Source: a virus | Length of the DNA stretch: 56,177 nt | Strand: one strand, 5' to 3' | IMG/VR virus record: IMGVR_UViG_3300045988_073633 | Coordinates: 1 to 56,177 of that record | Shown: positions 12,031-41,575 of the stretch, one piece after another | How positions within the stretch are numbered: the first letter of the stretch is position 1 | How the letters are laid out: every line of letters begins with the position of its first letter | Translations under genes and position numbers: made by a program | Notes under the pieces: model-generated | Databases searched by the model: none | What the model was told of the DNA's origin: nothing | The model's input: the letters and a program-made list of their open reading frames with translations, nothing else

Positions 12031-13250
12031 GCAGAAAAAGCACGTTCAATTATACGTTCTGCTTCTTCTTTGCTTTTATTGTTATAGTAATAAAAAGCTC
12101 TGGTAGTTTTAATATCTGTGTGCCCCATTTGGGATATTGTAATGTTGTCTGGAACACCTGCATCAATAAGATGCGTGCCATAAGTCATTCTGGCTTTATG
12201 AGCTGATCTGCGTTGGATTCCTAGATCATCACATATCCTGTATAATTTATCGGTGAATGCATGGCCATGCATTCTTTTCCCAGACTTACAGAATATATAT
12301 CCATTTTGAGATCCACTTATATTTTTTATTTTTTGTAACAACTCAATCGTTTTTTTGGTTATGATAATATTTCTATTTCCTGCATCTGTTTTCGGAAAGT
12401 CTCTAACTTCAAAAACATATTTTCCATTATTATCTTTATATCGTATCTCAGTCTTTGTAATTTTAATGGAATTTCCATCTATATCATTCCATTCTAAAGA
12501 TGATAACTCTCCTATTCTCATTCCTGTTTGGAACGATAAAAGTACTCCATATAAAAGCAATGATGGTTTTTGATTACATATGTAATCGGCGATCAAGTTT
12601 TCTTCCTCAGAAGTAAAAACTTTTAATCTATCGTCAATATATTTTTTTGTAAATATATTTTTCGATAAATCCAGATCACCCATAAAGCTTGTTATACTTA
12701 TTTTAGTATATCCTTTTTTCTTTCCATACTTAAAAATGCCATTAATCAATGTCCTAAGACCGCTCCAAGCCTTAGATGTAAGATTCATGGAATGAATAGT
12801 TGTTTTTATAAATTCTTCCAGCAAATCTTCTGTAATAAATCTGAATTCAATTTCTGAAATAAGAGTTTTTCGTATATATCTTTCATAATCGGTAGAATAT
12901 CTATCGTATGTTTGTCTTTGAATTTCTCCGTACTTCAGTTTGCTATCAATCCACATGTTGAATACATCCTCTATATAAGGCTCATTTGCCATATTCTTAT
13001 AATAATCAACAATTGCATTCTCAATAGAAGATTCATTTGTACGTTTCAAAAGTTTCCTTCCGGATTTCGTATGCTTATCAGGCAAATATGTATAATATCT
13101 TTCATCCTTCCCCTTCCAAATTTCGTAATTGTGTTGCTCCAAATACCTCTTTCGTTCGTTCATCTCAATTTGTTCTTGTATGTTGTCACGACTGATAATA
13201 CCATTTTCAATAGCGTAATTCAATAATTCTCGATCCGTTAATTCACACAT
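12027..13250 (-). CDS. int: Tyrosine integrase
   Basis: 407 aa. RIGE...HKARMTY...GH...Y catalytic pattern, adjacent to attP. Confidence 0.85.
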   Translation of the reverse strand: MCELTDRELLNYAIENGIISRDNIQEQIEMNERKRYLEQHNYEIWKGKDERYYTYLPDKHTKSGRKLLKRTNESSIENAIVDYYKNMANEPYIEDVFNMWIDSKLKYGEIQRQTYDRYSTDYERYIRKTLISEIEFRFITEDLLEEFIKTTIHSMNLTSKAWSGLRTLINGIFKYGKKKGYTKISITSFMGDLDLSKNIFTKKYIDDRLKVFTSEEENLIADYICNQKPSLLLYGVLLSFQTGMRIGELSSLEWNDIDGNSIKITKTEIRYKDNNGKYVFEVRDFPKTDAGNRNIIITKKTIELLQKIKNISGSQNGYIFCKSGKRMHGHAFTDKLYRICDDLGIQRRSAHKARMTYGTHLIDAGVPDNITISQMGHTDIKTTRAFYYYNNKSKEEAERIIERAFSA

Positions 13251-24776: not shown

Positions 24777-25127
24777 TCACACCTCGATTTCATCATCCTG
24801 TGGGAACTGAAATATAGCATTGCTAAGGCATTCTACTTTTGACGGCTGATTTTCTGTTCGCACCATAATGCCACATTTCTTTAATCTTTCAAATTCCTTT
24901 GCCACATCTTCTGAAATAGCGACATTCTGCATTACGATTGGCATACCGATATATGCTTTTCTCAGCATTTCCATAACCTTATACGATTTCTCTTTGGAAG
25001 AGTACTCTCCTAATAAGTATCTCTCTCCATTGTATAGTGCTATAACGCTCTCCATTGCGTGACACACAACTATCTGTTCATAAGGCAAATCAACATTGCC
25101 ATGTTGTGAAATTACTCTCATGCTCAA
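24777..25127 (-). CDS. Hypothetical protein
   Basis: ORF track. Confidence 0.45.
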   Translation of the reverse strand: MSMRVISQHGNVDLPYEQIVVCHAMESVIALYNGERYLLGEYSSKEKSYKVMEMLRKAYIGMPIVMQNVAISEDVAKEFERLKKCGIMVRTENQPSKVECLSNAIFQFPQDDEIEV

Positions 25128-25131
25128 TCTC

Positions 25132-26040
25132 CTATTCTGCCTGCATAAATGGCGGTAATGTGCTATCTTCTGCCTGTTGCTCGGTTACTTCTGTGGCTGT
25201 ATCTTCGACTACGTCATCAACAATATCGCCCTCAACAAAATCTACGCTGTTAGCATTCTGTTCAATATCGTAATCAACATCAGCCTGCATACGCTCATCA
25301 TAACTAGGCAACTTCTCCTCACTATCGTAATTTCCGTCATAGAAAGAACCATAAGTATTGTTAATCTGCTTTAACAGTCTGTTCTTAACTGTTTTCATAG
25401 CCATCTGGTCTGTGAATTTCTGATGCGTTCCGTTTCCGTTCTCTTTATAGCCATATCCCTGTTTCCAAGCCTGCTTTATCTGTTTGATGTTCATAACCTC
25501 TGTGAGAACACTTCCGTCATCCATAGTGGCTATTGCGTAAGCACCCTTGACCTTATCGTTGTCGATATTCTCAAAGTCCTGCTTATGAGTGACAATACTT
25601 TTCTTGCCATTAACAATTTCATACTCAAATGTATCGCCCTCATAGATAACCTCTGCTGTTATGTCTTTAAGTCCATATCTCCTAGCAATGCAAGTGTTTC
25701 CATACACTGATTTCTGACACTGCAACTTGCCACCATAAGCAACCGGGTAGCACTGCTTCTTCTGCATTGAAAGGCCATTTGTAACCATTTCAACAAGTGC
25801 ATTTTCAATACTTGCCCTTGTGCAACTCTGCAATACTGGCTTCTTGTTCATATCTACTGTTTCCTGTAAAATAAGCATTGCTGACATAAATTCATTTGTG
25901 TAGTTGTAATCTTTAGGAAATGTCAAGCCGAATTTCTCTTTTTGCTTGATTTTCACAACCATTCCCTCTGTAAAGTCCTTTGCTACAAGTTCCCTACTTT
26001 CAGTTTCTTTCTTTTCTGCAACTGCTGTATTCTCTGCCAT
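25132..26040 (-). CDS. recT: RecT-family single-strand annealing protein
   Basis: The CYPVAYGGKLQCQKSVYG...ARRYG core and an acidic C-terminus. Confidence 0.8.
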   Translation of the reverse strand: MAENTAVAEKKETESRELVAKDFTEGMVVKIKQKEKFGLTFPKDYNYTNEFMSAMLILQETVDMNKKPVLQSCTRASIENALVEMVTNGLSMQKKQCYPVAYGGKLQCQKSVYGNTCIARRYGLKDITAEVIYEGDTFEYEIVNGKKSIVTHKQDFENIDNDKVKGAYAIATMDDGSVLTEVMNIKQIKQAWKQGYGYKENGNGTHQKFTDQMAMKTVKNRLLKQINNTYGSFYDGNYDSEEKLPSYDERMQADVDYDIEQNANSVDFVEGDIVDDVVEDTATEVTEQQAEDSTLPPFMQAE

Positions 26041-26042
26041 AA

Positions 26043-26267
26043 TTATTCATCCTCCTTAATACCCAAAATCTTTTTCGCAAGATTCTCAAAATGTTCCATT
26101 GCTTCTTTTTCAATCTCTTCATCAGAAAGAGCAGCTCTTTCTATGCAGCGGTTATAATCTTTTTCACCAAAATGTTTCTTACAATTTCTTAAAATAAAAA
26201 CTAATTCTGCTTCTACTAATGGCTTAGGACCTGCGATTTCTAATTTACCCATATCTGTTTTAATCAT
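26043..26267 (-). CDS. Hypothetical protein
   Basis: ORF track, overlaps the RT stop. Confidence 0.4.
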   Translation of the reverse strand: MIKTDMGKLEIAGPKPLVEAELVFILRNCKKHFGEKDYNRCIERAALSDEEIEKEAMEHFENLAKKILGIKEDE

Positions 26268-27325
26268 AATTTTCTCTCACTTTCTAACAATTTTTTTACA
26301 TATAAATCCATCGAGTAACATAGTTTGATACAATTTCCATGTAACGCATGATTTTTCCATGCATTGTATTTTTCATAGAATTTTTTCTCTGTCATTCTTC
26401 CAGACTTGATAAGTTTCACCCACACCGTAATTTTTTTGCGGATTTTTCTTTTATTTACTCCATTTAACTTCCTTATATACTTTCCATCTTTGGTAACGTA
26501 ATGATGAAAACCTGTAAACAACATTCCGTTCTTGAATGGTATAATCTGTGTTTTACCATTAAGCGACAATCCAAGACTTTGTACGAACTGATTTATGCAA
26601 TCAAGACACCATTTTATATATTCCTTACTTGGTGCTATCAGATAAAAGTCGTCCATATATCTTCCATATAGACTTATCCCTAACTCGCCTGTAATAAAAT
26701 GATCTAAGCCATTTAGCATAAGTAAAGCATAAACCTGTGCCACCTGATTACCGAGTGGCAATCCCAAACCATCTGTACTGTCGATAAATAGGTGATTAAG
26801 CCACTTCGTATAATCATCTGCAAAATAGTAATCAACAATATCTTTCAACACTTCATGATCTATCTGATAGAAAAATTTTGTAATATCACATTTTAGAATC
26901 CAACCATTAAGTCCATGTTCTCTGTAAAATTCAAGCATATGTTCTTTCAAAAAATCAATTCCAAAATGCGTACCTTTTCCTATCTGCCCTGCATAGTTAG
27001 TCTTAATAAACTCATCTGCCAACATTGGATGCAAAATATTGTCGCACAAACAATGTTGAACTACCTTATCTTTGAATGAACACGATTTAATCACTCTTTC
27101 CTTTGGTTCGTAAACCTTAAATTCATTGTACGGATTCATCCGGTATGTCTGATTTTCAAGTTGTTCCTTCAAAATATGTAGCCCTTCAAGATCCATTGTC
27201 TGAAATCTTGCACTGCTGCCATTAAATCCTTTGCCGGCTTTAGCCTTTCTATATGCTTTATACAGATTTTCATAACTGCAAATAATATCTTTATCCAATG
27301 TAAAAGCTCCTTTGTATTTACCCAT
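26264..27325 (-). CDS. DGR-type reverse transcriptase
   Basis: 353 aa. YMDD, LGNQVAQ (DGR-type motif 4) and GKGTHFG motifs. Confidence 0.9.
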   Translation of the reverse strand: MGKYKGAFTLDKDIICSYENLYKAYRKAKAGKGFNGSSARFQTMDLEGLHILKEQLENQTYRMNPYNEFKVYEPKERVIKSCSFKDKVVQHCLCDNILHPMLADEFIKTNYAGQIGKGTHFGIDFLKEHMLEFYREHGLNGWILKCDITKFFYQIDHEVLKDIVDYYFADDYTKWLNHLFIDSTDGLGLPLGNQVAQVYALLMLNGLDHFITGELGISLYGRYMDDFYLIAPSKEYIKWCLDCINQFVQSLGLSLNGKTQIIPFKNGMLFTGFHHYVTKDGKYIRKLNGVNKRKIRKKITVWVKLIKSGRMTEKKFYEKYNAWKNHALHGNCIKLCYSMDLYVKKLLESERKL

Positions 27326-27497
27326 TTAGGAAAGGTCATACACTTTTTTGTATCTTTTACTGATTTCGGCTTATTGCCTACTCTTACTGCCTGTTTGATA
27401 CAGAATGGGCGAACACCGTTGTTGTTATTGCAATTGTTGTTGTTGATATTGCCGGACGGGGCAACAACGGTTTATACAGTGTATAACCTATATGTGT
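27326..27497 (-). ncRNA. DGR template RNA region (TR plus spacer) between avd and RT
   Basis: Non-coding 172 bp containing the TR. Confidence 0.7.
27397..27473 (-). repeat. DGR template repeat (TR)
   Basis: Colinear with both VRs. The coding-sense reading is GNINNNNCNNNNG (AAY codons), with 22 adenines. Confidence 0.9.
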
Positions 27498-27869
27498 TTA
27501 CCTTTCCCTGTCTTTTGTCCTCCAGGCAATAGCCATATGCTTTATATCAGAAACCATCTTTGACCAGTATTCCATGCTTTGCATGTTTATAATGTTCAAC
27601 TTCATTGACAGTTCTATATAAAAAATCAATTCATCACAATTCGTTATGGATTTTGTCTGTAGCTCTGACCTTTCCCGACGATATAACTTCAAATCTGTTC
27701 GGTTTGCTTCGTACAAATATTCGTAGATTTCCATTGCTTTGTTCTGCATCTTATCTACAAGCGAAAATCTGTACTTCTTTGGATATCTATTGCAATTTGA
27801 AGTTATTCGCAATGTATGTTCAGCTAATTCCTTTGCTTTTAGAATTACTTTTAGTTCTGTTTCTGCCAT
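27498..27869 (-). CDS. avd: Avd (accessory variability determinant), four-helix-bundle protein
   Basis: The YPKKYRFSLVDKMQNKAMEIYEYLYEAN motif, basic, located between VP and TR. Met-8 is the likely start. Confidence 0.8.
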   Translation of the reverse strand: MAETELKVILKAKELAEHTLRITSNCNRYPKKYRFSLVDKMQNKAMEIYEYLYEANRTDLKLYRRERSELQTKSITNCDELIFYIELSMKLNIINMQSMEYWSKMVSDIKHMAIAWRTKDRER

Positions 27870-27873
27870 ATAC

Positions 27874-28488
27874 TTATTCCTCTGATTCAAAGATTAAAGA
27901 GGAGAAGATACAAACCGGGCGAACACCGCGGCTGCCATTGCAAAGGCTGAGGCTGAAATCGCCGGACGGGGCAACAACGGCCACAGATGTCTCATAATCG
28001 TTGCATGGTGTACTCCACGGAGTAACAAGCCACCACCAATAATCATCTGTGTTAGGTATAAGGCTTCTATATTTTCGGTATTCATCAACCGTAAGAAGTG
28101 ACACCTTGTCCTCACACTCTCCATATTCAGTCTGTCCGTCAAGTGAAATCAGATTGCGATTGAATGGAATGATATTCTCTTCTCCTATTTCGTCAACAAT
28201 CTTTTCGATAAACTCTGTATCGAGATATTCTCGTAACTGGCTTTTAATCCAATCGTTTGATTCTTTGTCAAACTCCATGTTTTCTTCTAGTTTATCTGCA
28301 AGACACATATATCCTTTTTCAGTAATATTAAGTATCTTCCAAGTGACCCCGGCAATGTCAAAGGTATCTCCAATTCCTAATCCAGATGGTATATTATTAA
28401 TCTTCTTTGAAGATTCAAGTGCTGCAATCTTCTCTTTCAACTCATTAATTTGTTCCTGCAAGCTTTTCATTGTTAATGTTGTACTCAT
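27874..28488 (-). CDS. DGR variable protein 1
   Basis: 204 aa. The C-terminus DYWWWLVTPW...VVAPSGDFSLSLCNGSRGVRPVCIF contains VR1. Confidence 0.85.
   Translation of the reverse strand: MSTTLTMKSLQEQINELKEKIAALESSKKINNIPSGLGIGDTFDIAGVTWKILNITEKGYMCLADKLEENMEFDKESNDWIKSQLREYLDTEFIEKIVDEIGEENIIPFNRNLISLDGQTEYGECEDKVSLLTVDEYRKYRSLIPNTDDYWWWLVTPWSTPCNDYETSVAVVAPSGDFSLSLCNGSRGVRPVCIFSSLIFESEE
27907..27983 (-). repeat. Variable repeat 1 (VR1)
   Basis: 16 differences from the TR within the repeat, all at template adenines. It also has 3 shared non-A differences at the 3' (IMH-like) edge. Confidence 0.9.
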
Positions 28489-28490
28489 AA

Positions 28491-29090
28491 TTATTCTCCT
28501 TTCGATACAAAGATATTAGATTTCAAGATACAAACCGGGCGAACACCGTAGTTGTAATTGCAATTGCGGCTGCTGATAAAGCCGGACGGGGCAACAACGG
28601 CTATTGCATACTTCCAATTTCTACTTTCAGTAGACCAAGGCGTGCAAGTCCACCACCAATCGTTTAGATTCTTATTGGCAATCAAATCATTGTACTTTCT
28701 TGCTTCGTCAAATGTAATAGGTCTGACCTTACAAGTACAAGGTTCAAACTCATGCTGCATATCAACAGAAGTCAAATCAACCGTATGTTCAATGATGTTA
28801 TCTGCTCCCAGTTCATCTTCAATAATAGGCTGTATATCGTTCTCAATAATTTTCTTTAGATTTGACTTGTTATAATCTCTTGTATCTTCATCAAATAAAA
28901 TATCTTCTGCCATAAAATCCTTAGATATTACCTTTGTTGTTCCGTTGCAATGATCAAGCACGATGAAATCATGCTCTCCAACTTTGAATGCATCTCCCGG
29001 ATTCAATACTGATAACTGTACCTTGTTAGCTTTTTCTGCTTCTTCTAACTGCTTGACAAGTTCTCTTGCAATTTCTAATGCTTTGCTCAT
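28491..29090 (-). CDS. DGR variable protein 2 (paralogue of VP1)
   Basis: 199 aa. The C-terminus NDWWWTCTPW...VVAPSGFISSRNCNYNYGVRPVCIL contains VR2. Confidence 0.85.
   Translation of the reverse strand: MSKALEIARELVKQLEEAEKANKVQLSVLNPGDAFKVGEHDFIVLDHCNGTTKVISKDFMAEDILFDEDTRDYNKSNLKKIIENDIQPIIEDELGADNIIEHTVDLTSVDMQHEFEPCTCKVRPITFDEARKYNDLIANKNLNDWWWTCTPWSTESRNWKYAIAVVAPSGFISSRNCNYNYGVRPVCILKSNIFVSKGE
28527..28603 (-). repeat. Variable repeat 2 (VR2)
   Basis: 10 differences from the TR, all at template adenines. Same IMH-like edge as VR1. Confidence 0.9.
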
Positions 29091-29092
29091 TT

Positions 29093-30988
29093 TTAGCCCT
29101 CCTTACTAATCACTTTCAGTTTCTCATCATCTGTTCTTTTAAGAATAATCAGCTGATTGTCAACATCAGGAATCCTAATACTATCAACAGATTCAGCATC
29201 ATCAATTATGATTGGAATGCTGATCCCAAGTTTTTCCTGAAATGCCATACAAATATCCATCTCTGTAAGCATTCTTGCACCATGGTTAAGATTCCTGTAA
29301 TAAGATTCTCCATTGTGAAGATAATTACAACATTCTTCCAATTCTCCGTTTTTCAACTTCTTTATTAATTCAACATTGCAAAACGATAAATGCTTATTTA
29401 CGTCATCTTCCAACACTTTATTCTTCTTCAAAGAAAATTCTCTCAATAAATCGATTATTCTTTCTTGATCTGCAATTTTTTGCTGTGTTTTTCTTTGTTC
29501 CATTAGAATATGTTCTATTCTCTCATCTATAGCAATATTGTTAGAAGATCGTTGCATTTTAGAATCTATGCTGGAAAGCTCTTGCATGAGATCCTGCTCA
29601 TCTTCTTTAAGAGAAGATCGAACTTTTGTAAGTTCATTTTCCTTTACTTGATTCTGCAGCTCTTCCATTTCTTCTCTTAAAGAAATAACCTCCTCATTAG
29701 AATCTATATCAGCTACATTCCCGATAGATTCTATCTCCTTACTAATTGATATAAGATTAGATTGGAAATCAGACAACCTTTTATCATTTTCGACATTAAG
29801 TTGTTCGATGTTCTTAATTGTCGAAGTTGATTTTTCGATACAGTTCTTTAGTCGAAGTCCTTCTTCCTCAATGCCTTTAAGCCTTTTTTCTTTTGAAGAT
29901 TTCAAAAAATCTTCACTATCGCTTAAAGGTCTGCCACAAGTAGGGCATACATCTGGAATCTTTTCTGCTTTTACATCCATCCACAATTTTGAAAGCCTAT
30001 TTTTCTCCGAACTCATATTTTCGACATCCCCACGAAGTCGAATTACTTCGTTCTTATTTCTCTGTATTGCATCCGAAATATCATATATTTCATTTATGAT
30101 ATCCCCTTTTTTCTTTTCCAGCTCTTTCCGTCTAGCTCTTGCTTTTTCATTTTCTTCATTCTGTAGTTCTGATATTCGAAACTTGATTTCCATGATTCTT
30201 TCAATAGAAGAATCATATTGGCTTAATAAAGCTGATGTCTCAGTCTGTTTCTTTGCATTCTCATCAAGAAGTTTTTTTATCTCATTCTTTCTCAGTTCAA
30301 GTTCTGACACATCAATATCAACCTTCTGCTTCTCTAATTCTTCAATTCTAGGTCTGTATCCGCTAAAATCTGCTTTTAGTTTCTTTAATTCCCGGCTACA
30401 TCTATCTTTCAATTCATTAATCGTTCCATCTTCCAACATAGGCTTTAATTCTGAAAATTCATCGCATTCGCACAATGAAGAATCCTCATGCTCCGAAAAT
30501 GTGCTGTTAAGAATTGATCTCTGATCTGAATAACCACTTCTCAGCAAAGTCATTGCATTAATGCAGTAGGATATGTTGCCTATATTTTCCTGCAAAAACG
30601 ATCCATAATCAGTCGCTTTCTTGAGAATATCGTTGATATAGCATTCCGTAACTGTTCCTGTAATGTCTCCTTTTTTGTTCTTTTTATATTTCAGCACCTT
30701 TTTCAGCACCTTTTTAGATCCATCAATATCAATTTCCATTTCAGCAATGCAATCATCTGAATTAATATCGTTTCCATCTAAATCATGTGGCCTAATTCCT
30801 GTAATTTCCTTGCCGTTCTCATCCTTGCAGTTAAGCAACCACTGTATGATCTTTTTAATTGTTGACTTTCCGGATTCATTAACACCTGTAATCTCAGTTA
30901 CGTTGCTTAAAGTTATATCAATAGTGTTATCACCATAAAACTTAAAGCAATTATCAACTTTAATTCTGCATATTTTCATTATCATCAT
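29093..30988 (-). CDS. SbcC/Rad50-like SMC-family ATPase
   Basis: Walker A GVNESGKST, a long coiled coil with a central CPTCGR zinc-hook-like motif, and Walker B IIIDDAES. Confidence 0.65.
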   Translation of the reverse strand: MMIMKICRIKVDNCFKFYGDNTIDITLSNVTEITGVNESGKSTIKKIIQWLLNCKDENGKEITGIRPHDLDGNDINSDDCIAEMEIDIDGSKKVLKKVLKYKKNKKGDITGTVTECYINDILKKATDYGSFLQENIGNISYCINAMTLLRSGYSDQRSILNSTFSEHEDSSLCECDEFSELKPMLEDGTINELKDRCSRELKKLKADFSGYRPRIEELEKQKVDIDVSELELRKNEIKKLLDENAKKQTETSALLSQYDSSIERIMEIKFRISELQNEENEKARARRKELEKKKGDIINEIYDISDAIQRNKNEVIRLRGDVENMSSEKNRLSKLWMDVKAEKIPDVCPTCGRPLSDSEDFLKSSKEKRLKGIEEEGLRLKNCIEKSTSTIKNIEQLNVENDKRLSDFQSNLISISKEIESIGNVADIDSNEEVISLREEMEELQNQVKENELTKVRSSLKEDEQDLMQELSSIDSKMQRSSNNIAIDERIEHILMEQRKTQQKIADQERIIDLLREFSLKKNKVLEDDVNKHLSFCNVELIKKLKNGELEECCNYLHNGESYYRNLNHGARMLTEMDICMAFQEKLGISIPIIIDDAESVDSIRIPDVDNQLIILKRTDDEKLKVISKEG

Positions 30989-31505
30989 CGTTCACCTCCT
31001 CGATTCTGTAGCACGAAACCTCATATGCTTCTCCATGCTTATTTCCATTATTGTAGATTCTTCTCTGAAATCTACCTTCTATTTCTATTCTTGTTCCACA
31101 TTTCATATCATTCAATATGTGTGCGTTAGAACCCCATGCAATAAAAGGTATGTAATTCCTTCCATCTGTAAACATCATTGAGTTGCATATAAGGATATTG
31201 TTAACCGTGGATCGCTTCATGTATGGCTTCATTACAACAATCCCATTCAAAAGTGCTTTGTTCGTTGTTGGAATAATTGACTCAGACATAATATGCAGGT
31301 CTTCAACATCCACATATACAATTAGATGCTTTTTGTAATACATTGACTTAATCGTTCCTTTAATATGTACAATGTCTCCAATTTCTGCACAATTACCGCA
31401 TGTCTGGCATAGAATTATGTCCGAATTTCCGCTTGTCCTCATAACTTCAACGCTATACAGCGTTTCATTGATTCCAACAACTTCTCCTGCTATCTCGATA
31501 TTCAT
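30960..31505 (-). CDS. OB-fold SSB-like protein
   Basis: The C-terminal half (NYIPFIAWGSNAHIL...IEIEGRFQRRIY) resembles SSB/PriB-type OB folds. Confidence 0.45.
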   Translation of the reverse strand: MNIEIAGEVVGINETLYSVEVMRTSGNSDIILCQTCGNCAEIGDIVHIKGTIKSMYYKKHLIVYVDVEDLHIMSESIIPTTNKALLNGIVVMKPYMKRSTVNNILICNSMMFTDGRNYIPFIAWGSNAHILNDMKCGTRIEIEGRFQRRIYNNGNKHGEAYEVSCYRIEEVNDDDNENMQN

Positions 31506-31638
31506 TTGATCTCCTTTCGTTTGAACCTACAATAATTAGAATTATACCGGCAATGGTTATGGAAATCGGAATTGCTATGTATCTGCTATCCATTAATGAC
31601 ATTCCCACAAACATCAACATAAAACCAATCCTAATCAT
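31465..31638 (-). CDS. Small membrane protein (57 aa)
   Basis: SD AAAGGAGA, two hydrophobic helices. Below the ORF-track cutoff. Confidence 0.35.
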   Translation of the reverse strand: MIRIGFMLMFVGMSLMDSRYIAIPISITIAGIILIIVGSNERRSNEYRDSRRSCWNQ

Positions 31639-31811
31639 CTCCGCTTGTCTCCTTTCAAAAATTTATCAACAAACTTTATTACACCTGTTTTTCGATTCAC
31701 TATCCGATAATAAAAATCCGTTTCTGCTACAAATCCCCATTCTTTAGGATCTAATTTATGTGCCATTATGCACTCTTTTTGATTTCTGGTTAATTTCTTC
31801 GGTTGCTTCAT
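31635..31811 (-). CDS. Small conserved phage/ICE protein (DUF6906-like, tentative)
   Basis: 58 aa, MKQPKKLTRNQKECIMAHKLDPKEW...NRKTG. Confidence 0.4.
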   Translation of the reverse strand: MKQPKKLTRNQKECIMAHKLDPKEWGFVAETDFYYRIVNRKTGVIKFVDKFLKGDKRR

Positions 31812-31814
31812 CGC

Positions 31815-32366
31815 TTATCTCCCTTCTGTGCTAAAATAAAGATCGCCAGATTTCAGATACGGAACACCAAAGCTGTGATAATAACCATTTCTGAAATAAT
31901 ACATATCTGATGGATGATTGTTTTCTTTTAAGGCATTTTCAACGGCCTGCTCAACCTGTTCCGTCCATCCATAGTTTTCAAACTCGCTCCATGTGGTTAC
32001 CTCATATTGGTTCTTCTGATAAATCACATCATGCAATGTATCAGGAAATTTATCGCTTTCAAGTCTGTTAAGAATCGTCAGTGCTACCATTTCCTGTGCT
32101 TCAATGCTCTGGTTTCCAGATTCGCAATACACGGTCCTGCATAACAATTCTTTTTCTTCCTTATTTAAAAGGATTCTGTAATCCGTTCCTTTCGTACTTG
32201 CGTGTTCCACAAACTCAACTTCTTTAGCATCTACTTCAACAGGTACAGGATCTTCATTTACTTCTTCAATCTGTATTTCTTGCTCCAGTTCTGTTTCCTT
32301 ACATATAATTGCAGTAGCAACCATAACCGATACAATTCCAAGAAATACTAATCTTTCCTTTCTCAA
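31815..32366 (-). CDS. SleB-type cell-wall hydrolase with an N-terminal TM anchor
   Basis: The LLCRTVYCESGNQ...ALTILNRLESDKFPDTLHDVIYQKNQY motif. Confidence 0.7.
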   Translation of the reverse strand: MRKERLVFLGIVSVMVATAIICKETELEQEIQIEEVNEDPVPVEVDAKEVEFVEHASTKGTDYRILLNKEEKELLCRTVYCESGNQSIEAQEMVALTILNRLESDKFPDTLHDVIYQKNQYEVTTWSEFENYGWTEQVEQAVENALKENNHPSDMYYFRNGYYHSFGVPYLKSGDLYFSTEGR

Positions 32367-33070
32367 TCTCTTAACTCCATTCTTAACTGTGCGTTACAAT
32401 CATGCACTTCTTCTTCAAGGATTCTCGGAAGTTCATAGCAATCAATGAAATCGTGAACATCTGCAATGTACTTTCGCTTAATACTCTTATACGTTGAAAC
32501 ACAACCATATTCACGTTTCAACTGATTCCACATGTCAGAGAACACCTTGTTTCTTGTACTTGCATCCTTGTAAGCATTACTCTGCTTTCCGCCAAGGATG
32601 TTTACCGCCTTTCTCTTTACATGAGACTGAATCTCGTCAATCTCGCATCCGTAAAGCGGCATATCGTTCTCAAGCCTGTCCATACGTTCTGACAACTCTG
32701 TATTTCCCTGTGCCAGCAACTTAATCTGCTCTGAGGTTGTCATTGGCTTGTTATATCCTCCGGTCTTTCTGATTGATGGAAGAACCTCGGAGGTAACCCA
32801 ATCTGTAAATCTTTCTGCACTGTCTTTACGGCTCTGAAAGATTGTCTTGTAAAGATTGCTCTCGTTGATATATAAAAGCTTCTGCTCTCCTCCTTTTGTA
32901 AGGGTAGGAATACTATTCACACCCTTTGAGTTCAATCTTTCCTTAACCTTTGATGGTTGTGTAAGCTCTAATGCCCTGCACACATCGCCCAAACAAAACA
33001 TTGGTTCATCATCTTTTGTAATAGTTCGTATTTCTCCAAATTCTGTGTTACTAAAAATCTGTAATTCCAT
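32363..33070 (-). CDS. BRO-N/KilAC-type antirepressor
   Basis: The N-terminus FGEIRTI...PMFCLGDVCRALE...FTDWVTSEVLPSIRKTGGY. Confidence 0.75.
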   Translation of the reverse strand: MELQIFSNTEFGEIRTITKDDEPMFCLGDVCRALELTQPSKVKERLNSKGVNSIPTLTKGGEQKLLYINESNLYKTIFQSRKDSAERFTDWVTSEVLPSIRKTGGYNKPMTTSEQIKLLAQGNTELSERMDRLENDMPLYGCEIDEIQSHVKRKAVNILGGKQSNAYKDASTRNKVFSDMWNQLKREYGCVSTYKSIKRKYIADVHDFIDCYELPRILEEEVHDCNAQLRMELRD

Positions 33071-34699: not shown

Positions 34700-35392
34700 A
34701 TGAGTACATTAAGGCATAATATTGATATATATGTCGATGATAAAGAAATTACATTGAATGATATATCGGAAAAATCTGGTTTATCTGTTTCTACATTATC
34801 CAATGTATTGTATAAAAATTCGAAAGATATACGTCTAGGAACTGCTCTTGCACTTGCTAAGGCATTTGAAATCACTTTAGATGAATTGATTGGTTCTGTT
34901 ACAATGGAGCCAAAAATGAGTGAATCAGTGCGTATGTGCAGGGAACTACCAGAACATAGTATTTATCTAGTTAGGTATTTTATACGGCATCAATATATGA
35001 TATACAATAAAATTAAAACTAATTATATATCTGTATTGATTCCGAGACTAGAGAACGGAATTATGCCAACAACTAATGTAGTAGAACCATTATGTGTGGA
35101 TTTACCAGAGGATATAAAATCTAAGGCATATATAGGGTTAAAGATACCATCAGATAATTATATGCCTTATTACGATGCCGGAGAGATAATTCTTATAGCT
35201 TCTGACCGAGAAGCACAAAGAGGGGAGCATTGTGTTGTAACTAGCAATGGTGGAATTTATATAGTTGAAAAATCAAGAAAAACGTATAAACCACTTACAT
35301 CTCAATACGATATACCAGCTTCTAAAATTGATGATAAAATCGGATATGTTGTAGGTTTTCTTAACAAGGATCTAACGTGGGGAATACGATAA
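34700..35392 (+). CDS. XRE-HTH protein with an S24/LexA-like C-terminal domain (second repressor-like gene)
   Basis: HTH LNDISEKSGLSVSTLSNVL. The C-terminus NYMPYYDAGEIILIA...HCVV is S24-like but lacks the canonical Ser. Confidence 0.55.
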   Translation: MSTLRHNIDIYVDDKEITLNDISEKSGLSVSTLSNVLYKNSKDIRLGTALALAKAFEITLDELIGSVTMEPKMSESVRMCRELPEHSIYLVRYFIRHQYMIYNKIKTNYISVLIPRLENGIMPTTNVVEPLCVDLPEDIKSKAYIGLKIPSDNYMPYYDAGEIILIASDREAQRGEHCVVTSNGGIYIVEKSRKTYKPLTSQYDIPASKIDDKIGYVVGFLNKDLTWGIR

Positions 35393-36136: not shown

Positions 36137-37159
36137 CTATTGGACGTACATCTGGAATTTGGTTATTGGATGTCCAAACAATCCGGCATATCCGTCCTGT
36201 CCATTGGATATCTGGTTGTTATGCTGCCATTCAAAATAAATGTTTCTGTCTGATGCCTGGACCCGGTACACAGCAACAGATCCATCGACTACAATTTCCA
36301 CAGCATCAATAGCGTTTCTTAAATCCCCGGCAAATCCATTTTTGATATCGTTCAGATCGTATCCATCAATGTAAGGATACCATTTCCCTTTAATTGTATG
36401 AACTCTTACCCGTACGTGCTTACCGGGTACCTTCACAGCGATCGCTTTTATAGCTCTACCGGCCCAGCCGGCATAATCTTCTAGGTTCTTTACCGGTGGC
36501 AGCCAACGATCGGTATAGACCTGATAAAGTGCATCACTTGCCGCAGGAACAATTGGCTGCGCTGTCGCATATTCCTTATAGAACTCACTGATATCAACAT
36601 TTCCCTGCACACCATTAATAGATCCAGTTGAAGTGTACTGCCATCCGACTTTTACACCTTCATAGGTACATACATCATTGTACTGTGCTACCCACTTATC
36701 CCACTGTCCGAATCGCGGATCTGTCAGTTTATTTGTAAACCAGTACTTATTCGCATAGATTCCGACCGGATATCCGGCATTCTGAAGTGCCTTGCAAAAG
36801 ATCTCCGCCATATCTCCTAACAGATCCGGACTACTCTTTCCGGTTGTATTTTCATCCTCCATATCGTAGAAGATGGGCAGATCTAAGGATATACCTTGAA
36901 GCAGACGAATCGCATGTGCTGCTTCTGACTGTGCATGTGCGACAGAATCTGCATAACTGTATAGATACGCCCCTACCTTTAATCCGGCTTCTTTTGATCC
37001 ATTTACATTCTGATTCCAAAATGGATCATCTTGTGACAACACATCATCTCCAAATCCGCAGCGAATTATTGCAGCTTCAATCCCAGATTCCTTAACGGAC
37101 TTCCAGTCAATGTTTCCGTTGTGCTTACTCACATCAATAACTTTATACATTTTTACCAC
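36137..37159 (-). CDS. Endolysin, GH25 muramidase with a C-terminal wall-binding region
   Basis: VIDVSKHNG.IDW...AAIIRCG...GAYLYSY...FYDMED. Confidence 0.8.
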   Translation of the reverse strand: MVKMYKVIDVSKHNGNIDWKSVKESGIEAAIIRCGFGDDVLSQDDPFWNQNVNGSKEAGLKVGAYLYSYADSVAHAQSEAAHAIRLLQGISLDLPIFYDMEDENTTGKSSPDLLGDMAEIFCKALQNAGYPVGIYANKYWFTNKLTDPRFGQWDKWVAQYNDVCTYEGVKVGWQYTSTGSINGVQGNVDISEFYKEYATAQPIVPAASDALYQVYTDRWLPPVKNLEDYAGWAGRAIKAIAVKVPGKHVRVRVHTIKGKWYPYIDGYDLNDIKNGFAGDLRNAIDAVEIVVDGSVAVYRVQASDRNIYFEWQHNNQISNGQDGYAGLFGHPITKFQMYVQ

Positions 37160-37165
37160 TCCTTT

Positions 37166-38149
37166 TTAAGCGACCTTTTTATGGTCGATTTTTACATTGT
37201 CTTCATCAACACTACAATATAGCATTGTTGTATCTAAGCTCGAATGTCCTAGTATTGCCTGTAAGTGTTGTATTTTCATTCCCTTATTAAGGGCATTAGT
37301 AGCAAAGGTTCTACGGAACCTATGCGGATGCACATTGTTTATTCCTGTTATTTCAGATATCTTTTTTAACATTTTTTCTATTGATTGTTTGCTTAATCTT
37401 TCTCCAAATCTGTTGACAAAAAGTGATTCGTTACAATCTGTTCGTTCTTTTAAGTATTCTCCAATATAGTACAATGCCTTATCAGAAATATATACTTTCC
37501 TTTCTTTGCTTCCTTTTCCAAACACAATCGCTTCACCACGAATCATATCTATATCGTTCCAATTAAGATTAACAATTTCACTTACCCTGCACCCGGTTGT
37601 AAGCATAAATTCAATAATAGCTCTGTCTCTTTTATTCCATGTGGAATTTTTAATTCGTTCAATTTCATTGTCATTAAATGGTTTTCTGAAAACCTTTTCT
37701 GTTTTTATCTTCTTGATCCGTAGCATTGGATTTTTCTCGATATATTCTTCTCTTGTAAGCCATGCAAAAAAAGACGATAGATTTCTCCTTTTGTTGTCTA
37801 TTGTGCTTTTAGACACCTTTCTATTTTGCTGATACATTGCCAAGTGATATCGTATATCATTTGTAACCATGTCTTCTACTCTTTTGTCCACATCTAAAAA
37901 TAGAAGATTAATTGCTAATTCATATTGATCTAATGTTTGCTCCGACTTACCTTCTAATCTTAAAGATGCTATAAACTTCTTTTTCAATCTTTCATTGCTG
38001 TTATCATAAAATCCAACTTCATGTGATTTCTGCTCTACATGATATGATTGAAATAACACTGTTAGTGCATCTCCTAATTTTTCCATCTGCTCCTTGCTCA
38101 ATTCTTCTGACATCATTAGCAATAATTCACTTCTTAATCTTTCCTCCAT
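37166..38149 (-). CDS. XerC/XerD-like tyrosine recombinase (second recombinase)
   Basis: RVSEI...HPHRFRRTFAT...LGHSSLDTTMLY catalytic pattern. Lies between the tail fibre and the endolysin. Confidence 0.8.
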   Translation of the reverse strand: MEERLRSELLLMMSEELSKEQMEKLGDALTVLFQSYHVEQKSHEVGFYDNSNERLKKKFIASLRLEGKSEQTLDQYELAINLLFLDVDKRVEDMVTNDIRYHLAMYQQNRKVSKSTIDNKRRNLSSFFAWLTREEYIEKNPMLRIKKIKTEKVFRKPFNDNEIERIKNSTWNKRDRAIIEFMLTTGCRVSEIVNLNWNDIDMIRGEAIVFGKGSKERKVYISDKALYYIGEYLKERTDCNESLFVNRFGERLSKQSIEKMLKKISEITGINNVHPHRFRRTFATNALNKGMKIQHLQAILGHSSLDTTMLYCSVDEDNVKIDHKKVA

Positions 38150-38247: not shown

Positions 38248-39609
38248 TCATTTAATCCGAATAGCGATAATGCTCGCCTCATTCTGCACAAAGTTCATCG
38301 GAGATTCAGCGTTCTGGTATACCCAGAGGGATACTGTTGTAACTGTTGTAAAGGTCGCAACTGTAACTAAGGTTCGAGATCCATATGGCCGATTGACTAA
38401 GATATCATCTGCATTGTCACCTTTAGATAATCGAGCATACTGAATATCTTTCTGATCAGAAATCAGACCAATTAAAAGATACATACCAGGCTGAATATTG
38501 TATGCAATACACACAGCCGTAAATGATGCAAGTGGAACTGGAACCGTTCCGCCTAAGTTGGTCTGACTAACCTCTCCGAGCTTTGAATAGTTTGAGTTTA
38601 GTGTAGATATAGCACCAGTAATTGTACCATCTCCTAAGGTAGATATGTCCGTACTTCCAATATCTTCTTTTAATCCGCTAAGGCTAACAGGTGAACTTGT
38701 TCCGCTTTTTGCTACCAAATCTCCAGCAGTTGAGTATCCATTAACTTTCTCATATATGTAATCATCAATCATTTTTGCAATTTTGCCCTTGAACTCAGAC
38801 CATTCAGATCCAGATACTAAGCTGCTTAACGCTTCTGGAACCTCAAAATCCGTTCCTACTGACATTGCACCAGTAGAAGACACTTTGACATCATTTGTTG
38901 CCATGACTTTTCCGGGAGTTGTTGTTGTCGCTATTGACATTCCGGCCGCAGATTTAGCTTGTTCCATATAGTATTTAGCATTATCTACAGCTTCTCCGTC
39001 TCTTAATCCGCTTAGACCATTAGCATATGACATTGACATTTTGGAGTAGTATTCTGACTGAGTTTCACTGCTTTTTGCATTATCCGCATAGTTTTTGACT
39101 TTTCCAGTTTCAACCTTAATGTTTGCAAGATATCCTGTCTCCAGCATTGATTCTGTAATAGAACCATTTTTGACACTTGCAGATATACTTCCGTCTTCCG
39201 CTACACTGAATGTTATAGTTGAAGATTCCTTGAATTCATACTGTGTAACAAGTGCCGACATATCAACATACTGATATGTTCCATCTTCTAATGTAATAAC
39301 TAATCTCTGATTAACGGAATCGTAACTAAAGTTAACAGCAATCTTCTGTAGATTAGTATTGTATGTCTGAGATGATCCATTCTTATAATTAATCGTCAAT
39401 ACGCCGGTACTCTCATTAAGAGTTACAGACAATACCATCTCATTTACTTCCGATATATCAGCTTTGATTGTATCTAGTGTTATTACTCTATCATCTATCC
39501 CATCTAATGCAGAGTCACTTTTATTTAAGTTGTTTTGATCGATTGGAGTTGCTGTTGATGGTCTGTTGATCCAATTAATTCTATTAAATAACTTTTTCCA
39601 ATTTTGCAT
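38248..39609 (-). CDS. Tail fibre / receptor-binding protein
   Basis: Met-12 follows SD GGAGG. The N-terminus NWINRPSTATPIDQNNLNKSDSALDGID is typical of Firmicute phage fibres. Last tail gene. Confidence 0.65.
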   Translation of the reverse strand: MQNWKKLFNRINWINRPSTATPIDQNNLNKSDSALDGIDDRVITLDTIKADISEVNEMVLSVTLNESTGVLTINYKNGSSQTYNTNLQKIAVNFSYDSVNQRLVITLEDGTYQYVDMSALVTQYEFKESSTITFSVAEDGSISASVKNGSITESMLETGYLANIKVETGKVKNYADNAKSSETQSEYYSKMSMSYANGLSGLRDGEAVDNAKYYMEQAKSAAGMSIATTTTPGKVMATNDVKVSSTGAMSVGTDFEVPEALSSLVSGSEWSEFKGKIAKMIDDYIYEKVNGYSTAGDLVAKSGTSSPVSLSGLKEDIGSTDISTLGDGTITGAISTLNSNYSKLGEVSQTNLGGTVPVPLASFTAVCIAYNIQPGMYLLIGLISDQKDIQYARLSKGDNADDILVNRPYGSRTLVTVATFTTVTTVSLWVYQNAESPMNFVQNEASIIAIRIK

Positions 39610-39610
39610 T

Positions 39611-41575
39611 TTATTTTTCCTCCAATTTCTTAATTCTATCATTCAACTGTTGTATTGTAGCAACCAGATCTGGTATTATCTCTTCGTATCTAAGGCTTTT
39701 AACGCCGTCATTCTCTACATATACACCATAATCTTCTTTCATCACTTTTTTAACTTGTTGCGCAATAAACCCATGATGATATCTATTAGATGTTCCGTTT
39801 TTAAGCCTATATTTGTAAGGTATAAGTGAACATATGAAATCTGAACTATCTTCTTTATTTAACCTTTCAAGGTCTTTCTTGACATGAAAATCTGATTTAC
39901 TTACTGTTCCATCTGGAGTATATACAGTTCCGTTGAACGTAGCACCGTTTTCAAAAATGTTAACCGCTCCAATTAATGCGGTTCTAGTTGTTCCTTCATC
40001 ATAAAAATATATACTTCCTTGATCCTGAGATACAGATACTTTAGCTCCGTTTCTTCCCATAAATGTACATACTGGAAAAGCTAATACTACAGATCCAATT
40101 CCATCATCTCTTACAATCATGAACTGATTTGTATTTTCTATCGCTGTTAACTTAATGCTGCCACCAGTAATCTTCATATCCGAGGCTTCAACAGCACCAT
40201 TTTTATTCAGTTTGAACTTGTCGCTCTCAATAGAAACTCTGTTAGCCTTAATTGTTATATCTCCAGCTTCTTGACTTATTTCAGATGAGACATCTCCTTT
40301 TGTTACTTTAGTGGCTATGTTTGCTTCAGTCTGAGTTATTTTTGTACTCATTTCATCTTCTACCGAAGTCGCTCTGGAAACTTCACTTTCTAGTCCGCTT
40401 TCAGTTGCTTCAACTCTGATTTTAAGTCTTCCATTTTCTGAGTTAAGTTTTTTTAATTGACTTGTAATGCTGTTCGGATCAGTTGATAAGTATTCCGTAC
40501 CTTCTGCTTTTATTTCGTCTGTTAATGCCTGTACTCCTGTTAGTGTCCTCTCGAATATATATGTTTCTACATATTCATCACCAACCTTAAAACTTATCAT
40601 ATCTCCACATTCAAGATATGGCTGGCCAACCATTGTTAATTTTGATGGCCGATAATAAAGTTTATCAATGTTACTTGCAATTTGATTAATAGTGTTTTTA
40701 AGTTGTTCTTCTTCTAATGACGCAAGAATATAATTGTCTGTAAACGTGTATGGATTATCAAGATTATTAGTCTCATATCTTGTTCCATCAGAAAACAACG
40801 CTATAACACCATCAATAGGATATGTTATATATTCTTCACATTCCGGGTAGTCTTTTAATATGCGTGCCTCTGATATATCCATATCGCTATCTGAATGTGA
40901 AGGATATAATGTTTCAGAAGGATATAATGTTTCAGAAGGATACAATGATGATGCTTTTATTTTTACATATTTTAATTTACCGTTTCTATCAATCTGTGGC
41001 CAGCAACAATTTAATTCGCATAGTCCAGACATAATATCTGTTCCACTTATTCCGCTTGAATAATCCAGTTTAGGATCAAATGATAAACTATCATACAATA
41101 AATTTGTTTCTATCTGATCTATTCCTACGTATTGGCATAATCCATCTCTTAATTCTTTGACAGTTGTTGGAAATTCAACAGATTTATACCACTCTGACAC
41201 ATCAGAATTAAGATTAATAAGTTTATCGTATGCTACGATTTCTCTATACGGCTTTCCTATTTGTTTTTTGGCTGAATAGACATTAAAAAATCCAAGTGAT
41301 AACTCTTCGTTGTCTACTATCAATACCGGATTGATTTCAGCTCCAACTATATCTTTTTCAACCCCGGTAACTGTAACAGTAAAGCAAGAAGCATTAATGA
41401 GACCGAATTTTAATTGTTCTTCGTTCATCATGATTTCTTCTAACTTCATGCTCTCAGATACAATGTTTTTATTGTTTAATTCCTTGTGGTACCCATCCGA
41501 GAATCGAATTACTAGATTCTTATTAACACTATCTTTTGTATATAGTTTTTTTAATTTTTCGCTTACATTAATCAT
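39611..41575 (-). CDS. Tail-associated protein (Tal-like) with a C-terminal S74-type intramolecular chaperone domain
   Basis: 654 aa. The C-terminus YRLKNG.SNRYHHGFIAQQV...LRYEEIIP..V..IQQL. Confidence 0.6.
   Translation of the reverse strand: MINVSEKLKKLYTKDSVNKNLVIRFSDGYHKELNNKNIVSESMKLEEIMMNEEQLKFGLINASCFTVTVTGVEKDIVGAEINPVLIVDNEELSLGFFNVYSAKKQIGKPYREIVAYDKLINLNSDVSEWYKSVEFPTTVKELRDGLCQYVGIDQIETNLLYDSLSFDPKLDYSSGISGTDIMSGLCELNCCWPQIDRNGKLKYVKIKASSLYPSETLYPSETLYPSHSDSDMDISEARILKDYPECEEYITYPIDGVIALFSDGTRYETNNLDNPYTFTDNYILASLEEEQLKNTINQIASNIDKLYYRPSKLTMVGQPYLECGDMISFKVGDEYVETYIFERTLTGVQALTDEIKAEGTEYLSTDPNSITSQLKKLNSENGRLKIRVEATESGLESEVSRATSVEDEMSTKITQTEANIATKVTKGDVSSEISQEAGDITIKANRVSIESDKFKLNKNGAVEASDMKITGGSIKLTAIENTNQFMIVRDDGIGSVVLAFPVCTFMGRNGAKVSVSQDQGSIYFYDEGTTRTALIGAVNIFENGATFNGTVYTPDGTVSKSDFHVKKDLERLNKEDSSDFICSLIPYKYRLKNGTSNRYHHGFIAQQVKKVMKEDYGVYVENDGVKSLRYEEIIPDLVATIQQLNDRIKKLEEK
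40899..40947. repeat. 18-bp in-frame tandem repeat (2.7 copies) inside the tail protein gene
   Basis: GAAGGATATAATGTTTCA twice plus a partial third copy. Encodes SETLYP repeats. Confidence 0.85.

Follow-up and report, generated by a model that had tools for sequence, protein, structure and literature searches.

A diversity-generating retroelement with two tandem DUF6273 targets in a temperate phage genome

Introduction

A reverse transcriptase gene in the middle of a phage genome raises a simple question: does it serve a diversity-generating retroelement (DGR) and, if so, is the element complete, is it active and what do the proteins that it diversifies do? We address this question for IMG/VR virus record IMGVR_UViG_3300045988_073633, positions 1 to 56,177. 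This whole stretch of 56,177 nucleotides (nt) is hereafter called the window, and coordinates refer to it unless a related locus is named. A first-pass annotation of the bare sequence had proposed a complete DGR on the minus strand, and we find all of its elements there. Two genes for variable proteins (VP2 and VP1), each with a variable repeat (VR2 and VR1), are followed by avd, a template repeat (TR) and the gene for the reverse transcriptase (RT). We consider it very probable that the DGR is complete and was active recently, and that a temperate gut phage carries it in its early recombination operon as an optional cassette.

Divergence in the repeat body is restricted to template adenines

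The TR (27397..27471, minus strand) is non-coding and 74-75 nt long, with 19-20 mutable adenines. Its 74-nt core (27397..27470) aligns without gaps to 27907..27980 in VR1 (27907..27981, minus) and to 28527..28600 in VR2 (28527..28601, minus), which confirms the colinear alignment of the first-pass annotation. That annotation had used a frame of 77 nt (27397..27473). Of the 24 TR adenines in this frame, 22 precede the 3' edge. Compared with the TR, VR1 has 19 differences (16 body adenines and three edge positions) and VR2 has 13 (10 body adenines and the same three edge positions). The earlier counts of 22 template adenines with 16 and 10 substitutions are therefore exact for the 77-nt frame upstream of its 3' edge.

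The length of 77 nt is another matter. The edge at 27397 and the alignment stand, but among the three 5'-most adenines of the frame only 27471, perhaps also 27472, is a convincing member of the template. Repeat homology ends at a T two bases upstream of 27471. An ACC codon begins with adenine 27471, and at this residue homologues carry A, T, S or P, as expected for NCC.

Within the first 64 nt of the core, which contain 19 adenines, every mismatch falls on a template adenine (13 of 13 in VR1, 8 of 8 in VR2; hypergeometric p 2e-9 and 2e-5). When all other positions are fixed and the adenines are left free, the pattern has exactly three exact matches in 56 kb, where none is expected. These are the TR and the two VRs, each with 0 mismatches, so that C, G and T are invariant inside the repeat body, as had been claimed. 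The same adenine-masked pattern has no match in 100 dinucleotide-preserving shuffles. Hence the genome contains no further remote VR; in particular, this search of the whole window finds no VR in the tail-fibre gene (39611..41575).

The mutagenised body of VR1 comprises 27929..27960 and position 27981, that of VR2 28549..28580 and position 28601. Each VR ends in a stretch resembling the initiation of mutagenic homing (IMH) element, at 27907..27927 in VR1 and at 28527..28547 in VR2 (GGTGTTCGCCCGGTTTGTATC). The corresponding 3' end of the TR, GGTGTTCGCCCATTCTGTATC (27397..27417, minus), resembles IMH*. Three changes common to both VRs (A>G, T>G and C>T) distinguish their edge, GCCCGGTTTG, from that of the TR, GCCCATTCTG. 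Relatives show this 3-nt difference as well, which makes it plausible to read an IMH/IMH*-like pair here, as the first-pass annotation did.

In the reading frame of the VRs the TR would translate as SGNINNNNCNNNNGVRP, whereas VR1 encodes SGDFSLSLCNGSRGVRP and VR2 SGFISSRNCNYNYGVRP; the earlier translations agree with these recomputed ones. Nine AAY codons have TR adenines at their first two positions, and an ATC codon has one at its first. Together with the ACC codon, eleven codons are randomised in each target (nine AAY, one ATC and one ACC). By our own arithmetic each target has a coding capacity of ~15^9 x 4 x 4 peptides (roughly 6e11), and stop codons are impossible.

The reverse transcriptase groups with those of known DGRs

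The RT gene (26264..27298, minus) encodes 344 amino acids (aa) from a TTG at 27298. In an alignment of 30 intergenic regions this TTG is aligned with the ATG-GAT-AAA of relatives and is preceded by AAAGGAG. The ATG at 27325, the start in the list of open reading frames (ORFs), lies inside a conserved RNA hairpin and is missing in most relatives. Hence the protein has 344 aa and not the 353 proposed before, while the YMDD motif and the DGR-type LGNQxAQ motif (here LPLGNQVAQ) are confirmed.

The protein matches Pfam RVT_1 (E 4.5e-14) and phrog_1423, a reverse-transcriptase family (E 5.8e-100). Its best sequence match in the PDB is the RT of phage BPP-1, bRT (8ub7, from the cryo-electron microscopy entries of bRT-Avd-RNA; E 1.7e-36, 129 bits). 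The next-best class, group-II-like and retron-type RTs, reaches E 7e-12. In the alignment with bRT the equivalent of R74 is kept, IGSLTSQ is aligned with LGNQVAQ, and YMDD falls on the catalytic aspartates. Among annotated phage RTs, the nearest belong to nd12 (48% identity), nd4, FP_Brigit, FP_Toutatis, Lelie and BPP-1 (31%). DGRs have been described in the gut phages nd12, nd4, FP_Brigit, FP_Toutatis and Lelie (PMC10743442; PMC11792537; bioRxiv 10.1101/2024.10.15.618418). Judged by these sequence searches, the RT groups with DGR RTs: the best relative of solved structure is BPP-1 bRT and the nearest relatives are RTs of DGR phages, in line with the earlier expectation.

The avd gene (27498..27869, minus) lies between VP1 and the TR, on the same strand as the RT gene that it precedes. 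It encodes a basic protein of 123 aa with an isoelectric point (pI) of 9.2, and its match to phrog_3206, 'Avd protein of DGR' (E 1e-21), bears out the earlier description as Avd-like. A sequence search of the PDB with Avd gave no match. An avd gene is present at 79 of the 80 related RT loci described below.

Template and targets change together among relatives

If TR sequence is copied one way into the VRs, then relatives should carry the traces. We scanned IMG/VR with the RT, which gave 547 relatives, and fetched the best 80 of these (74-96% identity). An ungapped TR/VR finder was run on the fetched loci with enough flanking sequence. Nearly all of them contain adenine-specific repeat pairs, with the same spacing and the same order, VP-VP-avd-TR-RT. 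Over 113 pairs from 67 related loci, 1467 of 1518 TR-VR mismatches lie at template adenines. The TR-type sequences are conserved in these 67 loci and the VRs differ; the stability of the TR that the first-pass annotation called for is thus what we observe.

Where the TR does change, the VRs change with it. Loci L002-L004 (RT 95-96% identical) have CCCCGGCTGGC in the TR where the window has CCCCGTCCGGC, and L002 also has GTGCG instead of GTTCG. Both VRs of each genome carry the non-adenine changes of its own TR, as predicted by one-way copying from TR to VR.

The VRs also differ between samples. A protein search returned a VP2 variant (P0121) that is identical to the window's VP2 outside the VR. 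It is encoded on L245, a 3.1-kb contig of run SRR25448140, which comes from another sample, is 96% identical to the window and ends inside avd, so that the TR is not covered. Between window and contig there are 13 substitutions in VR2 and 15 in VR1, and 28 of these 28 fall on template-adenine positions. Outside the VRs (VP2, VP1 and the start of avd) we count four substitutions and one 3-nt indel, none of the substitutions in VP2. VR variation between strains is therefore limited to template adenines, as the first-pass annotation had anticipated.

Some VRs have hybrid 3' ends. VR1 of L004 (5343-5421) reads GCCCATTTTG and is TR-like at two of the three positions that distinguish IMH from IMH*; VR1 of L245 carries the TR-like A at 27916, the first of these positions. 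This suggests that the 3' limit of cDNA transfer sometimes extends into the IMH-like element.

Two VP genes are present in 55 of 61 loci, and a few loci have one, three or four. As separate observations, L075 (2965-3033) has a third VR ~2.9 kb upstream of the TR and in L048 (4134-4198) a VR is displaced further upstream, so target number and position vary among related loci. In the TR of L025 (5820-6010) the AAC run has 8 units, compared with 6 in its nearest relatives, and the ungapped finder gave no VR partner; this TR may be a length variant or a recently changed template.

Two nucleotide-level searches contributed little. Megablast of the 7-kb region against GenBank phages returned nothing, and protein-level searches were needed. 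A scan of IMG/VR for an exact 20-mer, the 5' anchor of the VRs, returned only L001, an unrelated GC-rich contig, which we discarded as a chance match.

A covarying RNA structure encloses the template

Folding of the intergenic RNA of avd, TR and RT (200 nt) yields a long-range stem around the TR and the spacer, that is, the RNA from the TR to the RT start (27299..27396, minus). All RNA elements named here are on the minus strand. The 12-bp closing helix is formed by AGGUUAUACACU (27478..27489), just after the avd stop codon, and AGUGUAUGACCU in the spacer (27333..27344). Across 30 distinct relatives nine of its pairs show compensatory double changes and 98.9% of cells are paired. Directly 3' of the helix, the spacer forms a 3-bp hairpin, UCCUAAAUGGG (27321..27331), with two covarying pairs, followed by UAAAUACAAA. 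In the complete structure under test, 99.2% of cells pair; sliding the 3' partner by 1-3 columns lowers this to 23-41%, and the observed covariation is not reached in any of 500 shuffles.

This arrangement has a counterpart in BPP-1. There, the 'cPRT Stop' has three parts: a duplex that the spacer forms with RNA upstream of the TR, a short stem-loop, and adenosines in A-minor contacts (bioRxiv 10.1101/2023.10.23.563531). It ends cDNA synthesis and is needed for cDNA synthesis (Handa et al., bioRxiv 10.1101/2023.10.23.563531), and it was predicted computationally in 207 of 278 Avd-type DGRs (bioRxiv 10.1101/2023.10.23.563531). When its pairing was disrupted and then restored, BPP-1 was not rescued. 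The window shares with the 'cPRT Stop' the long-range duplex, the short stem-loop and the adenosines.

The primer strand of BPP-1 is located 2 nt upstream of the spacer strand of the duplex and pairs with the 3' end of the TR (bioRxiv 10.1101/2023.10.23.563531). In the window the spacer sequence GAUACA (27349..27354) is complementary to UGUAUC (27397..27402), the last six nt of TR/VR homology. In distant Clostridia DGRs both partners have changed (GUGG/CCAC, GCGG/CCGC, GAUUA/UAAUC and GAUA/UAUC). The mean run of complementarity between TR end and spacer is 5.5 for matched and 4.2 for mismatched partners, and none of 2000 permutations reaches the observed value, in a set of sequences that are phylogenetically clustered. 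The comparison is suggestive, and we treat UGUAUC:GAUACA as a candidate primer duplex.

The spacer also contains the invariant motif AGUAGGCAAUAAGCCGAA (27365..27382). In the spacers of L098-L152, DGRs of many Clostridia genomes with RTs that are only 50-60% identical, the pattern AGUAGG[CU]R-N2-3-AGCCGAA directly after the TR does not vary. The motif is probably a protein-binding RNA element, perhaps a counterpart of the stem-loops of BPP-1 that bind Avd or RT. Further helices proposed by RNAalifold, within the TR and between the TR 3' end and AGUAGGC, were set aside: their columns are invariant and show no covariation. The hairpins CUGU-AUCAA-ACAG and GGC-AAUAA-GCC are essentially invariant in the close family, and therefore give no covariation signal there.

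Part of the spacer resembles a catalogued RNA. Rfam RF03077 (RT-2 RNA), which we take to be an RT-associated RNA motif of unknown function, matches 27290..27395 (minus) with 21.2 bits and E 0.005-0.006, below the gathering score of 40. The match, to which the invariant spacer motif contributes, spans the whole model and shares the blocks AGUAG-c..g-CGAAAUCAG and the terminal hairpin followed by UAAAUA. The outer helix of RT-2 is not formed in the window, and none of 13 related loci scanned reaches the gathering score. On account of the sub-threshold score we do not assign the spacer to this family; RT-2 itself may be the spacer RNA of a related DGR group.

From these elements we propose the following mechanism. 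An RNA that runs from the end of avd through the TR and across the spacer would fold such that the 12-bp helix (27478..27489/27333..27344) closes TR and spacer, with the short hairpin and A-rich stretch after it matching the BPP-1 'cPRT Stop'. A complex of RT and Avd would bind the folded RNA. cDNA synthesis would then be primed in cis near the 3' end of the TR, with UGUAUC (TR):GAUACA (spacer) as the candidate duplex and the A that ends GAUACA (27349), or a base next to it, as the predicted priming nucleotide. The TR would be copied with misincorporation opposite adenines until synthesis halts at the closing helix. Finally, the cDNA would replace VR1 or VR2, with the direction set by the IMH-like end, in which the VRs carry GCCCGGTTTG and the TR GCCCATTCTG. 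The outcome would be eleven randomised codons at the DUF6273 C-terminus of each of two paralogous proteins of ~200 aa.

Both targets are small DUF6273 proteins

VP2 (28491..29090, minus; 199 aa, pI 4.9) and VP1 (27874..28488, minus; 204 aa, pI 4.4) are paralogues with 37% identity. Each consists of an N-terminal helix and a DUF6273 domain, with VR2 or VR1 at the C-terminus. Both exceed the gathering cutoff of 23.5 for Pfam DUF6273 (PF19789), VP1 with 38.8 bits (E 1.1e-9) and VP2 with 28.9 bits (E 1.3e-6), and both match phrog_9958 (E 5.4e-48 and 1.2e-34). Among the matches listed, precomputed PF19789 assignments include all 120 VP1 homologues and a minority of the VP2 homologues. Going by these domain matches, the DGR diversifies the C-terminal part of the DUF6273 domain in both targets.

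A first AlphaFold2 model of VP1, built on a shallow alignment of 29 close homologues, was unusable (predicted local distance difference test, pLDDT, 47). For a second model we added VP2-like and Toutatis-gp24-like sequences, giving an alignment of three subfamilies, and obtained pLDDT 72.7 and a predicted template modelling score of 0.69. The model predicts a helix at residues 7-27, then a globular domain of mixed alpha/beta structure, with a VR loop of low confidence, as expected for hypervariable columns. With this model Foldseek matches DUF6273 proteins; against the PDB and BFVD it returns no match to Mtd or to a C-type lectin, and we do not claim a C-type-lectin fold. VP1 and VP2 are most probably ligand-binding proteins of variable specificity; what they bind and any membership in the virion are inferred.

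A search with Toutatis gp24 as query returned only ~87%-identical variants and added little diversity. As an aside, two 90%-identity clusters of Toutatis-gp24 homologues (P0241 and P0242) have 9787 and 4980 members, far above neighbouring clusters. Their size fits a DGR whose hypervariation multiplies distinct protein sequences in databases.

The cassette is an optional part of a recombination operon

The window is the genome of a temperate siphovirus-like phage with a GC content of 35.7%. PHROG matches identify the terminase (54710..56080), portal (52497..53927), major head protein (49740..50813), tape measure (42033..45590), tail fibre, endolysin (36137..37159) and a divergent repressor (34700..35392, plus), and PHROG 1 identifies an integrase (37166..38149, minus). 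It is a gut phage whose likely host is a Lachnospiraceae bacterium. In a scan of reference genomes the nearest cellular copies are found in Lachnospiraceae metagenome-assembled genomes, among them one of Agathobacter sp. with an 81% identical RT; further, more distant copies are spread over Clostridia.

Along the minus strand the order is an SbcC/SMC-like ATPase (29093..30988, the upstream neighbour of the DGR), VP2, VP1, avd, TR, RT and RecT (25132..26040, the downstream neighbour). The five ORFs of the DGR region are tightly packed. The element sits in a leftward early operon with replication and recombination genes, in which stop and start codons abut. It is ~10.5 kb away from the tail-fibre gene, with lysis and lysogeny genes in between. 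Scans of 25000..32500 for sigma-70 promoters and terminators gave counts no better than those of shuffled sequences; the limits of the transcription unit are therefore deduced from gene packing.

In IMG/VR ~370 contigs are RecT-positive. A comparison of IMG/VR phages anchored on RecT shows that the cassette is dispensable. Most phages whose RecT is 95-96% identical lack the whole DGR cassette, and in these the ATPase gene ends only a few hundred bases upstream of RecT. Conversely, among RT-positive loci the ATPase is found upstream in 49 of 61, while a RecT of the window's type is found downstream in just 13 of 75. Since the cassette is absent from close RecT relatives and its neighbours differ among RT-positive loci, the cassette forms an optional module together with its targets and occupies a variable slot in the recombination operon.

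At one related locus, L207 (5338-7882), VP2, VP1 and avd are kept, there is no RT match, and the gap between avd and RecT is too small for a TR and an RT. This locus resembles a decayed cassette with orphaned targets.

A 74-aa acidic ORF (26043..26267, minus) overlaps the RT stop codon by 4 nt and has no family match. We considered it as a component of the DGR and dropped it: a homologue stands between ATPase and RecT in the DGR-less phage L175. By this comparison the ORF is probably part of the recombination module rather than of the DGR.

A further observation concerns the upstream edge of the cassette. In the ATPase region 29363..30623 ~6% of positions differ from L245, while the neighbouring VP2 body (28601..29362) is without substitution. 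The contrast between ATPase and VP2 marks a sharp recombination or mosaic boundary.

Weighing the alternatives

The most durable alternative leaves the DGR itself untouched and concerns its targets. VP1 and VP2 could be early-expressed, non-structural binders that act in the infected cell or in the lysogen, and not receptor-binding proteins of the virion. They may serve counter-defence (binding variable host proteins of defence or surface maturation), superinfection exclusion or a benefit to the host. The place of the cassette between the SbcC-like ATPase and RecT, far from a tail fibre that has no VR of its own, speaks for this. So does the existence of phages with a 95%-identical RecT and no cassette, which means that the targets are dispensable for virion assembly. 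In FP_Toutatis and Lelie, too, the homologous small DUF6273 genes are found among early or replication genes, here methyltransferases, a replication initiator and an antiterminator. Moreover, inspection of VP1 and VP2 by eye revealed no signal peptide or transmembrane segment.

However, in mosaic phages gene position is a weak guide to function. In the literature such proteins are seen as serving receptor binding or adhesion, and for other DUF6273 targets of DGRs, fused to immunoglobulin-like (Ig-like) or tail-fibre domains, a role in receptor binding or decoration has been proposed. In their C-terminal part both VPs have a weak PHROG match to 'Hoc-like head decoration', and the N-terminal helix could oligomerise or dock onto the virion. 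On balance we regard a role outside the virion as unlikely.

Is the DGR active, or is it a relic that worked in an ancestor and left the VRs as frozen products? Several findings weigh against our main reading, and the first of them, the RT motif, also favours a relic. The canonical motif of DGR RTs is [ILV]GxxxSQ, and in the LGNQVAQ of the window Ala replaces its Ser. Avd falls below curated cutoffs (NCBIfam DivGenRetAVD E 5.5e-12; Pfam bAvd E 0.001). The IMH-like element is short and only moderately GC-rich, and 71-nt DNA folds reveal no significant hairpin or cruciform after either VR, unlike in BPP-1 (z -0.63 and +1.24). The candidate duplex UGUAUC:GAUACA is invariant in the close family and its register is ambiguous in distant relatives. 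Activity in this particular genome is something we infer from related sequences, and the loss of RT and TR at L207, with VPs and avd kept, means that decay does occur among relatives.

Yet RT, avd and both target ORFs of the window are intact. The 64-nt body of either VR has no non-adenine mismatch, hence there has been no drift since the last homing event. The 96%-identical contig L245 has wholly different VRs that differ at template adenines alone, and concerted change of TR and VRs between sister phages occurs in the same family of RTs with LGNQVAQ-type motifs. We therefore consider a relic very improbable and retain the reading of a recently active DGR.

Ordinary paralogy, with VP1 and VP2 as duplicates under diversifying selection, the TR as a pseudogene fragment and the RT as that of a retron, group II intron or defence system, could appeal to the 37% identity of the two paralogues and to sub-threshold NCBIfam matches to group II, Drt3a and retron models, but it has next to no credibility: diversifying selection would not limit changes to the adenines of a third, non-coding copy, VP1, VP2 and TR are identical at every non-adenine repeat position despite the low overall identity of the VPs, the NCBIfam matches are far below their cutoffs, BPP-1 bRT leads the solved matches by 24 orders of magnitude, and we see no intron RNA domains and no maturase or endonuclease extension, the weak RT-2 match being the sole Rfam match in 27150..27650.

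Comparison with described DGRs

A complete DGR of this kind invites comparison with BPP-1, whose paradigm the first-pass annotation invoked. The gene order agrees: target with VR, avd, TR and RT follow each other on one strand, with adenine-specific differences and an IMH*/IMH-like 3' end. The RT is 30.6% identical to that of BPP-1 over 89% of the query, and the R74 equivalent, the hydrophobic residue of xGxxxxQ and YMDD are aligned. The genomic position and the nature of the targets do not agree. There are two adjacent targets here and one in BPP-1; they are DUF6273 proteins of ~200 aa, whereas Mtd of BPP-1 is a tail-fibre-tip protein of 381 aa. The TR has ~75 nt instead of 134 nt, and the upstream strand of the duplex lies just past the avd stop codon instead of inside avd. 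Besides lacking the post-VR hairpin and carrying Ala for Ser, the element is part of an early recombination operon rather than a neighbour of tail genes.

Closer relatives are found in gut phages. In nd4 and nd12 one TR serves two targets (Baykov et al. 2023, PMC10743442). One of the two is the large 'tentaclin', which combines DUF6273 with Ig-like domains and has its VR close to the N-terminus (PMC10743442). The small DUF6273 target of these phages, 'tgt2', has a globular domain flanked by short helices (PMC10743442). The window shares with them the closest annotated RT (nd12, 48%), a tgt2 that is ~32-34% identical to VP1, and one TR for two targets. In nd4 and nd12, however, the small target is far from the cassette, whereas here both targets are small paralogues that stand in tandem immediately before avd, and a tentaclin is lacking.

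The Faecalibacterium phages Lelie and CP11 have large and small DUF6273 targets, and the targets of Roos and Pioen are DUF6273 proteins as well (PMC11792537). Toutatis-like phages have two DUF6273 targets (bioRxiv 10.1101/2024.10.15.618418), and in Faecalibacterium phages the VR is located at the C-terminus of the domain (PMC11792537; bioRxiv 10.1101/2024.10.15.618418). The RTs of FP_Toutatis, Lelie and FP_Brigit are ~39% identical to that of the window, and their small DUF6273 proteins are 31-36% identical to VP1, a range that also holds when nd12 and nd4 are included. Their hosts belong to another family (Oscillospiraceae), and their small target, reported to be a core gene, lies at a distance from the TR (17 kb in Toutatis), whereas here the targets travel with an optional cassette.

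DUF6273 is thus an established DGR target domain in gut phages. What is distinct here is the pair of small, tandem, paralogous targets before avd, the lack of a large target and the short TR, all of which are variation within a known type.

Significance and further observations

As a DGR, the locus offers little that is new: DUF6273-targeting DGRs of gut phages are known from the literature, and IMG/VR already contains several hundred relatives of the cassette. It is a clean and compact example: the TR has 75 nt, the two targets stand in tandem and a stretch of ~200 nt contains all RNA elements. Natural covariation supports conservation of the BPP-1 'cPRT Stop' architecture in DGRs of Clostridia phages. 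Our analysis adds a corrected RT start, a candidate priming duplex, adenine-restricted turnover of VRs between samples and the view of the cassette as an optional insert.

Of wider interest are small DUF6273 targets in early non-structural operons, both here and in Faecalibacterium phages. If VP1 and VP2 were indeed non-virion binders, then our understanding of phage DGRs would change, and their function would extend beyond tropism switching. In that case VP-VP-avd-TR-RT would be a self-contained 'adaptive binder' module, optional for its carriers and moving from one phage recombination operon to another.

Three minor observations concern the rest of the genome. The window has two integrase-family genes, at 12027..13250 and 37166..38149 (both minus; PHROG 1, E 4e-39 and 1e-55), and the second of them lies within the replication region. 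Between the tail-fibre gene and the integrase, an ORF of 464 aa (38248..39642, minus) matches a 'kinase' PHROG (E 2e-45), an unusual position for cargo. Finally, ARAGORN predicts a tRNA-like gene at 1983..2050 (minus) with an unassignable anticodon ('tRNA-???', anticodon 'gt').

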